From the UHGV virus genome UHGV-0174141: 50,880 bases of DNA; one strand, written 5' to 3'. This document shows, piece after piece, positions 36,001 to 39,000 of this stretch. The position numbers were made by a program. This DNA comes from a virus. Each line of letters starts with the position of its first letter. Position 1 is the first letter of the stretch.

Positions 36001-39000
36001 GGCGCTGGCGCTCCGGATGGGACGCACGCTGGGCGAACTGCGACAAACCATGACGGTTGGCGAATTCAGAATGTGGGCTGAATACGACCGTATCAGCCCG
36101 ATCGGTGATATCCGTGGCGATATTCTCAATGCCCAGCTGGTTTCAGCGATGTACGGGGCGCAGGGCGGTAAAGTCACCATCGAAGATGCTCAACTCAAGT
36201 GGAGCACAGAAGAGGATGAGGTAATCGACAGTGGCGATCCATTTGCCGGATTAGAGGCCGCTTTGCTCGCAGCATCGGAATAAAATTGAATCGTCTCCAG
36301 CCTCGCTTCAACGCGGGGCTTTTTTATACCCAAATTTCACCGCGCATCTCACGCGCACTTCACACAGAACCTTTCAGGATGAGCCTTGAGGATACCGGCT
36401 GGCTGTCGGTGCCTTTCTGTGGGCCGGATTCCTGTGAGACAAGGTTCATCACTAAAAGGTAATACCGATATGTCTAACATTGTCCCCATGAATTATGATG
36501 ACCATTCATTCCCTTTTGCTTCTGATTGCTGGTTTAATGCCACAGTTGCTGCAAAGCATCACAGGAAGAGAGTGAAGAACTGGACAATTCTGGAGTCAAC
36601 AAGGGATTACGTTGTCGAGTTGGCGCAAGAGCTTGATATTGAACCATTCAATTCTAAAGGGCAGATTTCTACCCTTTTAATTAGGATTGAGAAAGGCCGT
36701 TATGGCGGCACATGGATGCACCCAGAGTTGGCCGTTGAGTTCGCCCGTTGGTTGTCAGTCAAATTTGCCCGCGCCTGCGACCGCCACATTAAAAATTTGC
36801 TGCTGAGTAAAAATTTTCAGCTCACTGAAGATCAGATTGTCGGCCTCATGGTCTGCCAGCAACCCAGTTCCTGGGAAAAAAGGTTTAAAGACCCGTTCTA
36901 CCAGGCACTGTCGAAAATGTCCGGCATTCCTTATTTTGGTCATGTCGGCGGATGTCCGGCGTTGTTCGGTCAGATCACCGCTCGCTGGGTCTACGGTGTA
37001 GCACTTCCTGATTATGTCTATCAGGCAGCTAAACAGGCAGCCGGCAACAGCAAGGAGAAGATTCATCAGCATCTTAAGCCGGATGCGCTGGAGAAGGTCG
37101 AGCAGCAACTGATCGCCGTCACAAACATTGCCAGTTGCAGCATTGACCAGAAGGACTTTGAGGCCCGTTGCATGGCTGCCTTTCCTGTCAAAGGGCAGAT
37201 GAAGCTGCTGTATGCGGCGGCATAACCATGAATAACCGAATCGTTGAGTGCGCCTCCAGAGCGGGGCGCGACTTCTCTGAGTTCATGAAAGGCGAGAAGA
37301 ACATGATGGAGGCGCTGCGGTCTGCGGAGGAATTCACCGAGCAGTTACGCATTCACGGCTGCGTTAATCACCATTTCGTCAATTTCATGATGATGAAAGC
37401 GATAATGAAGGTGTTCGACGATATGCAACGCGAGGAGCAGCGTGAAGAGCGCCGAAGAAAACGAGCAGAAAAGAAAGGCAAATAGCCCACCCGTGTGGGC
37501 TTTCATCGCTAACTACAGCGATCCTTTTGCAGCCTTAGAGGCCGCTTTGTTTGCAGCATCAGCTTGAATTAAACAACGATAGCTGAAGTCTTTCTTAACC
37601 AATGGTAGGATTTGAGTACTTTTCTACCTTTTGGGATAAAAAAATGAAAAAAATATTGGGTGTTTTATCTTTAGTCGTTTTTGCTATAGCATTTATTATT
37701 GCGTTAAGGCAACCAATATCAATCGTATTTCTTATTGCTGTTTTGGCGATTCCTTTAAAATATATAGATAAAATTGGCGGAGAGATTGCTTCTCTTTTGA
37801 TAATATTCGGTTCTATCTTTGTTTTGTTTTTTGTTAACTCAATGGTTCCTTTATGGGGGGAGAGGTATGAGAATCATGAGGAGTTAGTGAGAATTAGCGA
37901 GAGCGATAGGCAGAAAAGATACAACAATATGAATGTTATATCAGCAAGCAACTCTGGTGTTAAGTCTGCATTAAAAGACCCTGAATCCGCAACCTTCAAA
38001 AATCAGAGCGTTGGTCGTGAAGGGTATGTGTGCGGTCAGGTAAATGCTAAAAACAGCTTTGGTGCATACGCCGGGTTTAAAAGGTATGTAAGTAAAAATG
38101 GCATGACAATTATTGATGATGGCGGATCTGAATTTTCGAAACTATGGGGCGAGATTTGTAAATGATACATTCTTGCTAATTAAAGAAAACCGCTTAGGCG
38201 GTTTTTTTATATCTGCGAGGATATAAATGGCAACTTTACGCGAGCTTATCATTAAGGTTTCAGCAAACTCTCAATCATTCCAGACTGAGATCGCCCGCGC
38301 ATCACGCATGGGGCAAGACTATTATAAAACTATGCAGAATGGTGGGCGTCAGGCTGCTGCTGCTGCGAAGGAAAGCCAAAAAGCTCTTTCCGAGTTAACG
38401 GATGGATTTGCTTCAGCGGGTCGAGCTGCCACAATTGCAGCTGCAGCATTTGCAACAGGAAAACTGGTTCAGATTGCAGACCAATGGAACTCAGTAAATG
38501 CACGGCTTAAACAAGCCTCAGTGTCTACGAATGATTTTACTTTATCTCAAACCCGATTAATGGCGATCAGCCAGAGTACGGGCACTGCTTTTACTGATAA
38601 CGCTAATTTATTTTCACGCGCGGCAGCATCAATGCGTGAATTTGGCTACAGCTCAGATGAAGTACTCAAAATCACCGAAGCGGTATCAACAGGACTAAAA
38701 CTATCTGGTGCAAGTACAGAAGAGGCCGGCTCTGTTATTACCCAGTTTAGCCAAGCGCTTGCTCAAGGTGTTTTGCGTGGCGAAGAGTTTAACGTGGTTA
38801 ACGAAGCCGGGGATCGTGTCATCCGTGCCCTGGCTGCTGGTATGGGGGTTGCCCGAAAAGATCTTAAAGCGATGGCTGACCAGGGGCAACTCACGATTGA
38901 TAAAGTCGTACCAGCATTAATCAGCCAGTTAGGTGTGTTACAGGGGGAGTTTTCCTCGTTACCGCCGACAGTTTCCGGTTCAATGCAAAAAGTCACTAAC

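Follow-up and report, generated by a model that had tools for sequence, protein, structure and literature searches.

UHGV virus genome UHGV-0174141, a stretch of 50,880 nucleotides (nt) that was analysed at its full length and is referred to here as the window, is essentially a complete lambdoid prophage of Klebsiella with an HK97-like tail module, as judged from gene calls and Pfam matches. Between its genes for tail assembly chaperone T and the tape measure protein (TMP) lies a plus-strand gene (37644-38165) encoding a membrane protein of 173 amino acids (aa). We propose that this gene is a moron, that is, a transcription unit added to the tail operon of this prophage. From the comparative analysis described below, its product might be expressed from the prophage and, tethered to the membrane, block tail- or TMP-mediated DNA entry in the periplasm (superinfection exclusion), a reading to which we give a probability of about 0.45, slightly below even. 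This reading is favored because: the exclusion protein gp15 of phage HK97 is encoded in the equivalent slot; relatives of the 173-aa protein are encoded at positions associated with lysogeny; the conserved part of the protein is predicted to face the periplasm; and unrelated exclusion proteins work in a similar way. Three things are inferred from this evidence: that the prophage expresses the gene, that it confers exclusion, and what its product targets. The locus is a candidate tail-operon exclusion-type moron from a protein family that nobody has named.

In the proposed mechanism, three helices would insert the product into the inner membrane, and a helical stalk of about 40 residues would put a small alpha+beta domain, probably stabilised by a disulfide, in the periplasm. 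The protein would be made in lysogens and, by read-through, also during late lytic growth. The tethered domain may then intercept the TMP/tail-tip complex ejected by an incoming siphophage, or a conserved envelope partner of that complex; no inner-membrane channel would form, and the DNA would stay outside.

The gene and the slot before the tape measure gene

A single open reading frame spans positions 37602 to 38165 on the plus strand. Within it, the ATG at 37644 (MKKILG…) is likely the true start, giving a coding sequence that, with its stop codon included, specifies 173 aa. The sequence GGGA is present 7 nt upstream (37633-37636), and relatives at 90% identity are themselves 173 aa long and begin with MKK; the same two observations disfavor the upstream ATG at 37602 as the start. 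The gene is real and under purifying selection, with a ratio of nonsynonymous to synonymous substitution rates (dN/dS) of 0.10-0.16 when it is compared with six relatives at approximately 90% nucleotide identity. The exact protein is on record in Klebsiella, and its 90%-identity cluster adds the K. pneumoniae complex, K. oxytoca/michiganensis and Raoultella, in the prophages of which the 173-aa form is common, those of clinical Klebsiella among them.

An initial annotation, made by reading the DNA alone, had described the gene as conspicuously AT-rich against its neighbours, and calculation confirmed that it is an outlier. Its GC content is 36.4%, compared to 51.4% for the window, and its GC content at third codon positions (GC3) is 33.3%, compared to 44-67% for the neighbouring genes. 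Among sliding segments of 522 bp the gene has a z-score of -3.8, with only 0.3% of the segments being equally low, and the GC minimum of the entire 50.9-kb window (0.354, in the segment starting at 37591) falls on it. As GC3 is also low, the AT bias is not merely a matter of amino acid composition or of codons for hydrophobic residues. The divergence of the gene is close to that of the tail genes on either side (85-90% identity), indicating that it is an old resident of the tail module that has kept a foreign composition, and not a recent arrival. A hidden RNA gene in this AT-rich stretch was considered and rejected, with Rfam giving only a sub-threshold rsmX match (21 bits versus a gathering score of 56). 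On the minus strand, a sigma-70-like site lies antisense within the gene from 37722 to 37695 (TTGATA, 16-nt spacer, AATAAT; 10/12 matches), and it is probably a by-product of AT-richness.

The same annotation had placed a terminator of the gene's own before the tape measure gene, and a stable, conserved hairpin followed by a U-run is indeed present there. On the plus strand, the core hairpin (AAAACCGC-TTAG-GCGGTTTT, 38186-38205) is followed by a T-run to 38209, and it is nested in a longer stem (38169-38222) with a free energy of -23.6 kcal/mol and a z-score of -5.96, none of 200 shuffled sequences being equally stable. The U-run ends short of the TMP start codon at 38227, with the hairpin 21 nt before this start. 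A consensus terminator scan flagged the minus strand only, as on the plus strand the T-run forms part of the stem. The hairpin is kept at homologue loci L001, L002, L014 and L005 (locus labels are ours), including a locus whose homologue is just 51% identical, and analogous hairpins are found 3' of a Cedecea homologue (L006) and of HK97 gp15. In the longer stem, the Shine-Dalgarno sequence of the TMP gene (GAGGA) falls within the 3' arm, GCGAGGAU, and the 5' arm, UUCUUGCU, lies just past the stop codon of the 173-aa gene. Pairing in this stem is preserved in L001, where a C-to-U change gives a G-U pair, and the long stem may couple translation of TMP to read-through or ribosome traffic.

A Q antiterminator is encoded at 18891-19739. 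Reading through terminator-bounded morons by Q-modified polymerase is established lambdoid biology, and the presence of Q explains how TMP can be expressed through three terminators during lytic growth; terminator-bounded cargo is thus compatible with a late operon.

The slot itself, at the junction between chaperone T and TMP, holds different genes in different phages. Elsewhere it carries Ant, Arc, KilA-N or an insertion sequence (IS) element, and ST11-VIM1phi8.1 has yet other cargo there, so the description of the locus as a cargo site holds. Of the features by which Juhala/Hendrix recognised morons (restated in PMC3594210), a deviant composition, an own terminator and a place between two genes that adjoin each other in related phages are found in this gene; for an own promoter active in the repressed prophage, there is only the weak candidate described below.

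HK97 gp15 was the first gene to be termed a moron, and its product is an inner-membrane superinfection exclusion protein that blocks DNA entry (PMC3594210; PMC10883804). The block is relieved by swapping the tail region, and HK97 hybrids carrying the HK022 tube and TMP genes escape it (PMC10883804). Like the 173-aa gene, gp15 lies between the chaperone genes (gp13/14) and the TMP gene (gp16), is followed by its own terminator and encodes an inner-membrane product. However, gp15 has only 62 aa, one transmembrane (TM) helix and no periplasmic domain, whereas the 173-aa protein is about three times larger. Homology to gp15/YebO was rejected (BLASTP E value of 0.75 over 7 residues), and the 173-aa protein is, by these comparisons, best described as a positional and architectural analogue of gp15, not a homologue.

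Protein architecture and family

Three N-terminal TM helices followed by a soluble domain, the topology given in the initial annotation, were recovered both by hydropathy analysis (hydrophobic segments at approximately residues 3-21, 24-39 and 46-71) and in an AlphaFold2 model with a mean predicted local distance difference test score (pLDDT) of 88.6. The model has helices at residues 2-20, 24-39 and 46-67 (TM region, 37647-37844, plus strand), a long helix at residues 71-109, four strands and a C-terminal helix. The N-terminus is predicted to be cytoplasmic and the C-terminus periplasmic, given K2/K3 and K39/K43 on the inside and the anchors of relatives. The charged long helix (37854-37970; pLDDT of 81-93 over the block) would, in the model, serve as a stalk holding the domain off the inner membrane. 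The conserved alpha+beta domain that follows occupies about 70 aa (residues ~104-173; 37953-38162) and carries the motif LKDPESAxF…CGQVNAKNSFGAYAGF…F…W…C, including two conserved cysteines, C130 and C172. The peptide that had been quoted in the initial annotation corresponds to residues 116-149.

A word-indexed search returned only 26 relatives. By contrast, a profile search of 1.84 billion cluster representatives returned 14,641 matches at E ≤ 1e-3, counted as 50%-identity clusters, with 7,705 at E ≤ 1e-10. Common to the family is the C-terminal stretch of about 70 residues, which consists of LKDPxSAxF, a strand, CGxVNAKNSFGGYxGF, two strands and F…W…C. Scans of the 173-aa protein against Pfam, NCBIfam and PADLOC gave no match, and a Pfam scan of 32 diverse relatives found only Zn-ribbon matches in N-terminal extensions, leaving the C-terminal domain uncovered. 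Literature searches found no paper on the protein or its motif. Six PHROGs do match the domain, namely 16400 (3e-42), 2320 (3e-26), 38187, 36625, 35207 and 21797; five of them are matched by all 32 members sampled, and the sixth by 27 of the 32. These PHROGs are unannotated clusters and not characterised families, and PHROG_16400, with 272 positions, includes an N-terminal cytoplasmic extension that the 173-aa protein lacks. The statement that no family could be assigned therefore stands as regards named families, of which none exists for this domain, but the domain does belong to a very large unnamed one that includes the six PHROGs.

What precedes the domain varies greatly among relatives. 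The anchor may be: a signal peptide or a single N-terminal TM segment; a lipobox; a cytoplasmic Zn-ribbon plus one TM segment; three TM segments; or a winged-helix-like cytoplasmic extension plus three TM segments. In isolated phages, the domain also occurs in a lipoprotein with a C-terminal SPOR domain (7e-16) or fused to an N-terminal PG_binding_1 domain. With a Zn-ribbon plus one TM segment the domain comes to lie outside the cytoplasm, and with SPOR or PG_binding_1 as fusion partner, at the cell wall. The C-terminal domain is therefore predicted from these sequences to be periplasmic across the family, and the three-helix bundle appears to be one of several interchangeable tethers. Longer relatives of 270-290 aa (P0028-P0032; KpLi5 gp18, L092 3231-4058; AUS531phi, L178 2438-3091; L042-L051) carry the N-terminal cytoplasmic extension of about 100 aa before the three TM segments, and this extension has faint winged-helix-type matches (RPA_C, PCI).

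The interchangeability of tethers bears directly on the second function that the initial annotation had offered beside superinfection exclusion, i.e., abortive infection. A small multi-TM protein encoded at a cargo site could be a membrane-damaging effector whose three-helix bundle depolarises the membrane upon infection and kills the cell. However, the conserved and selected part of the protein is the periplasmic domain, while the TM region is swapped for lipoboxes, signal peptides and peptidoglycan-binding modules in relatives, which speaks against the TM region as the active part. Moreover, no sensor, toxin-like or enzymatic domain and no PADLOC match was found. We therefore rejected this explanation as very improbable, and of the two functions it is exclusion that is favored, both by the gp15 slot and by the relatives next to CI repressors and integrases that are described below.

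The main rival is a lysogenic-conversion factor that acts on a conserved part of the envelope and not on phage tails. Through its periplasmic domain it would attach to peptidoglycan, or would block a conserved enzyme of muralytic or proteolytic type (the candidates being lysozyme, a tail-borne lysin, an autolysin of the host and a type VI effector), and so protect or remodel the wall of the lysogen. This possibility, from which exclusion could still arise indirectly, draws on several properties of the domain. The loop CGxVNAKNSFGGYxG is almost invariant across the 14,641 clusters, and inhibitors that plug conserved active sites often carry near-invariant loops. The SPOR and PG_binding_1 fusions point in the same direction, as do weak fold matches to cystatins/latexin, to the periplasmic domains of VirB8/TraE/TraH/TraM (NTF2-like), and to PepSY-like YpmB. 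Amine-oxidase N-domains were also among the fold matches. Such folds are typically binders or inhibitors, not enzymes. The fold likeness describes a topology and not a membership. In a viral structure library the matches were uncharacterised proteins and one Gordonia phage lipoprotein, and a sequence search of solved structures gave only a chance fucosidase match (E value of 0.75). In addition, many genomic copies of the family lie away from tail genes. On the other hand, no similarity to known lysozyme-inhibitor or immunity families was found in Pfam or NCBIfam, all three non-tail contexts that were checked against Pfam are still mobile elements or prophages, and the strong bias toward the slot upstream of TMP would be left unexplained. 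We consider a conversion factor unlikely, though it is the foremost competitor of a periplasmic entry blocker.

Genomic positions of relatives and known exclusion systems

A pattern scan of IMG/VR yielded 470 relatives, of which 79 loci, representing 39 clusters at 70% identity, were analysed. In approximately 20 of the 39 clusters the TMP gene starts 12-100 bp downstream of the homologue, and in 2 more it starts at about 470 bp. The adjacent TMPs, checked by phmmer and Pfam, span unrelated families (TMP_3, TMP_2 and Tape_meas_lam_C), and host GC content ranges from 38% to 68%; the homologue is lower in GC than its flanks in 35 of the 39 clusters. A TMP gene follows directly, in different tail modules (Cedecea, metagenomic contigs), for the three full-length relatives closest in sequence (39-51% identity) and for one lipoprotein member that is more distant, and every closer full-length (3-TM) relative that was examined, whether in genomes or metagenomes, is encoded in a tail module. 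Most of the remaining inspected clusters are still in tail modules, located between K and I (KpLi5, AUS531phi and the L042 cluster), before J (L033) or after TMP (L037). The K-I position in lambda-like tails represents a second recurrent tail slot for the family.

Position immediately upstream of TMP genes in many phages might suggest a tail assembly or structural component partnering TMP. However, the predicted site of the domain is the periplasm, whereas tail assembly takes place in the cytoplasm; in HK97 and other relatives the slot holds a different gene or other cargo; the gene has a foreign composition and is separated from the TMP gene by a terminator; and the family is also found beside repressors and integrases, as well as in a P2-like myophage outside the tail genes. 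The initial annotation had allowed that homologues might turn out to be structural tail components, and none is annotated as, or matches, such a component. A structural or assembly role was rejected as extremely improbable on the grounds of topology and slot polymorphism.

Other positions of the family point to expression in lysogens. Genes for short members, secreted or with a single TM segment, start 0-40 bp past the end of an S24 CI-type repressor gene in the same orientation (L008-L010, 5001-5348; L105, 5758-6219; L067, L117, L120, L130, L137, L144 and L163), a placement found for P0021 in at least 24 contigs, confirmed by Pfam for L105 and by phmmer for further loci. Such a position implies that repressor and homologue are cotranscribed in lysogens. 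Further members are found beside an integrase gene or attachment (att) site, or in a conversion region (L141, L123, SEN5 and PAJU2). Sites adjacent to repressor and integrase genes are classical for prophage-expressed genes, as exemplified by lambda rex, K139 glo and TP-J34 ltp. In the Paracoccus phage vB_PkoS_Pkon1 (L179 2261-2791), a PG_binding_1-fused homologue is transcribed divergently from the TMP start on the opposite strand, a "reverse moron" that must own a promoter.

These positions also bear on the possibility of a late-cycle phage function, in which the protein, transcribed with the tail operon and displayed on the membrane of infected cells, would spare progeny or co-infecting virions the loss of their DNA into lysing cells or debris (cf. 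T5 Llp), or would modulate the envelope prior to lysis. Consistent with this, the gene is co-oriented in the late operon downstream of the Q antiterminator gene, has no strong promoter of its own, has diverged together with the tail genes and is present in the isolated phage vB_VIPKPNMC05. However, the relatives apparently cotranscribed with CI repressors, those beside integrases and the Pkon1 relative, which runs antisense to the tail operon, imply that such genes are expressed in lysogens, and mechanistically such a function would be a sub-case of exclusion and not a true alternative. As a separate explanation, we regard it as distinctly unlikely, more so than a conversion factor.

Entry blockers with a related logic are known from other prophages, and the membrane-anchored ones stop injection by way of conduit proteins or TMP. 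SieA of P22 has 162-164 aa, compared to 173, and three TM helices in the inner membrane, as is predicted for the 173-aa protein. The P22 sieA gene abuts gene 16, which encodes a DNA-conduit/ejection protein targeted by SieA (PMC10883804). SieA differs in that its conserved motif, FxRYPxEAxxFNK, is predicted to be cytoplasmic, whereas the conserved part of the 173-aa protein is predicted to be periplasmic, and in that its targets are ejection proteins of podophages. Homology to SieA (types A-C) was rejected (BLASTP E value of 0.67, hhalign probability of 0.5%, motif FxRYPxEAxxFNK absent). Ltp of TP-J34 is a small, membrane-tethered domain, exposed at the surface or in the periplasm and expressed from the prophage, that blocks DNA injection; alterations in TMP overcome the block, identifying TMP as the target (PMC10883804, citing Bebeacua 2013; PMC3952083). 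As with Ltp, some relatives of the 173-aa protein are lipoproteins encoded in lysogeny modules, but Ltp belongs to phages of Gram-positive bacteria and has a lipid anchor, and no Ltp structure is among the PDB fold matches listed. Glo of Vibrio phage K139 is a small periplasmic exclusion protein cotranscribed with cI and int in the lysogenic operon, comparable to the relatives downstream of CI genes; unlike the 173-aa protein it is soluble behind a signal peptide and is encoded outside the tail module, and homology was rejected (hhalign probability of 0.06%). Tab and SNIPE also target TMPs, with architectures unrelated to that of the 173-aa protein.

Several observations weigh against exclusion as the function. 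A standard consensus scan found no plus-strand promoter upstream of the gene, and the only upstream candidate is a weak extended -10 element (37583-37611, plus strand; CTGAAG, 17-nt spacer, TAGGAT, with the TG at 37603-37604), which has 7 of 12 matches plus the TG in a lenient scan and lies in a stretch conserved in relatives. No family in PADLOC-DB 2.0 matches the 173-aa protein at E ≤ 0.1, and all database names of family members are "hypothetical protein". The loop motif hardly varies among thousands of clusters or between phyla, which suits a conserved ligand (peptidoglycan or a conserved muralytic/proteolytic enzyme) better than it suits TMPs, which evolve fast. Most matches in representative bacterial genomes are short secreted forms with no TMP gene within 6 kb, and in the three non-tail bacterial contexts mentioned above, the neighbour proved to be a repressor, an integrase or a resolvase in every case. 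The similarity of homologues and that of their adjacent TMPs are only moderately correlated (Mantel rho of 0.42, p ~ 2e-4), and several related homologues precede essentially unrelated TMPs, indicating that the slot is re-used independently of TMP sequence. Finally, as judged from its varied contents, the junction between tail assembly chaperone and TMP genes is a general cargo hotspot, and position alone is weak evidence of a functional link to TMP.

A broader proposal, which we put forward as doubtful, is that the C-terminal module defines a very large family, as yet without a name, whose phage-borne members would act in the periplasm, on interchangeable anchors, to block injection. Ranging from Proteobacteria to actinophage lipoproteins, this family would disable a conserved step of siphophage DNA entry (the TMP/tail-tip conduit or passage through peptidoglycan). 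The placement next to TMP, like that of sieA by gene 16, would then be an instance of a general rule by which exclusion genes are carried alongside the genes for the conduit proteins that they block. If true, the family would be among the most widespread superinfection exclusion families identified so far, and an explanation would be at hand for one uncharacterised domain and its thousands of variants; the domain would merit a Pfam entry and inclusion in defence finders, which miss it at present. It would also offer a compact handle on the passage of TMP across the periplasm and inner membrane, a poorly understood step upon which the unrelated defences gp15, Ltp and SNIPE converge, and it could help explain strain-specific resistance to siphovirus or temperate-derived therapeutic phages. 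Without a phage phenotype, the gene would be just another hypothetical moron.

History of the slot and other features of the prophage

The upstream boundary of the slot is formed by the tail assembly chaperone genes G (35571-35975) and T (35978-36283), both on the plus strand and together spanning 35571-36283, which match PF06222 (5e-44) and PF06223 (6e-18), respectively. The next gene downstream of the 173-aa gene is that for TMP (38227-41808, plus strand), which matches PF20155, PF06120 (HK97 TLTM) and PF09718 and forms the downstream boundary. A 43-nt direct repeat (36234-36276 versus 37518-37560, 86% identical) represents two copies of the 3' end of gene T, and the remnant second copy (37518-37567, plus strand) marks the original junction between T and the 173-aa gene. 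In the Klebsiella phages vB_VIPKPNMC05 and ST899-OXA48phi17.2 (L001 and L002), gene T is joined directly to the sequence that in the window follows the second repeat copy, and then comes the 173-aa gene.

Between the two repeats of the window lies a secondary cargo cassette (36284-37517, plus strand), which carries a KilA-N/P63C gene (approximately 36470-37225) and a PHROG_875 gene (37228-37485), both on the plus strand. It is bounded by hairpins of its own, a terminator hairpin at 36299-36320 and another hairpin at 37484-37501. The cassette is absent from the two Klebsiella phages above and present in L013. Its own hairpins and its absence from L001 and L002 indicate that it is a later addition to, or a recombination product in, the same junction; its entry was probably by recombination within the end of gene T. 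The order T, 173-aa gene, TMP is the older arrangement. In L015 (6611-7579), a DDE transposase gene (IS element) lies between a homologue at about 90% identity and its TMP gene.

The remaining landmarks of the prophage include a minus-strand integrase gene (1-1179) and a minus-strand gene for an S24/helix-turn-helix CI-type repressor (9177-9809), with the head genes lying between the Q antiterminator gene and the tail module and the major tail protein encoded at 34818-35540. The Q antiterminator also has a sub-threshold match to a DnaJ-type zinc finger (28.5 bits versus a cut-off of 32.7). Another cargo-like or unusual gene, on the minus strand at 1918-3312, encodes a fusion of Ead/Ea22 with a dATP/dGTP pyrophosphohydrolase. 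At 46310-49870, the window encodes a tail fibre of 1186 aa with a C-terminal GDSL esterase domain.

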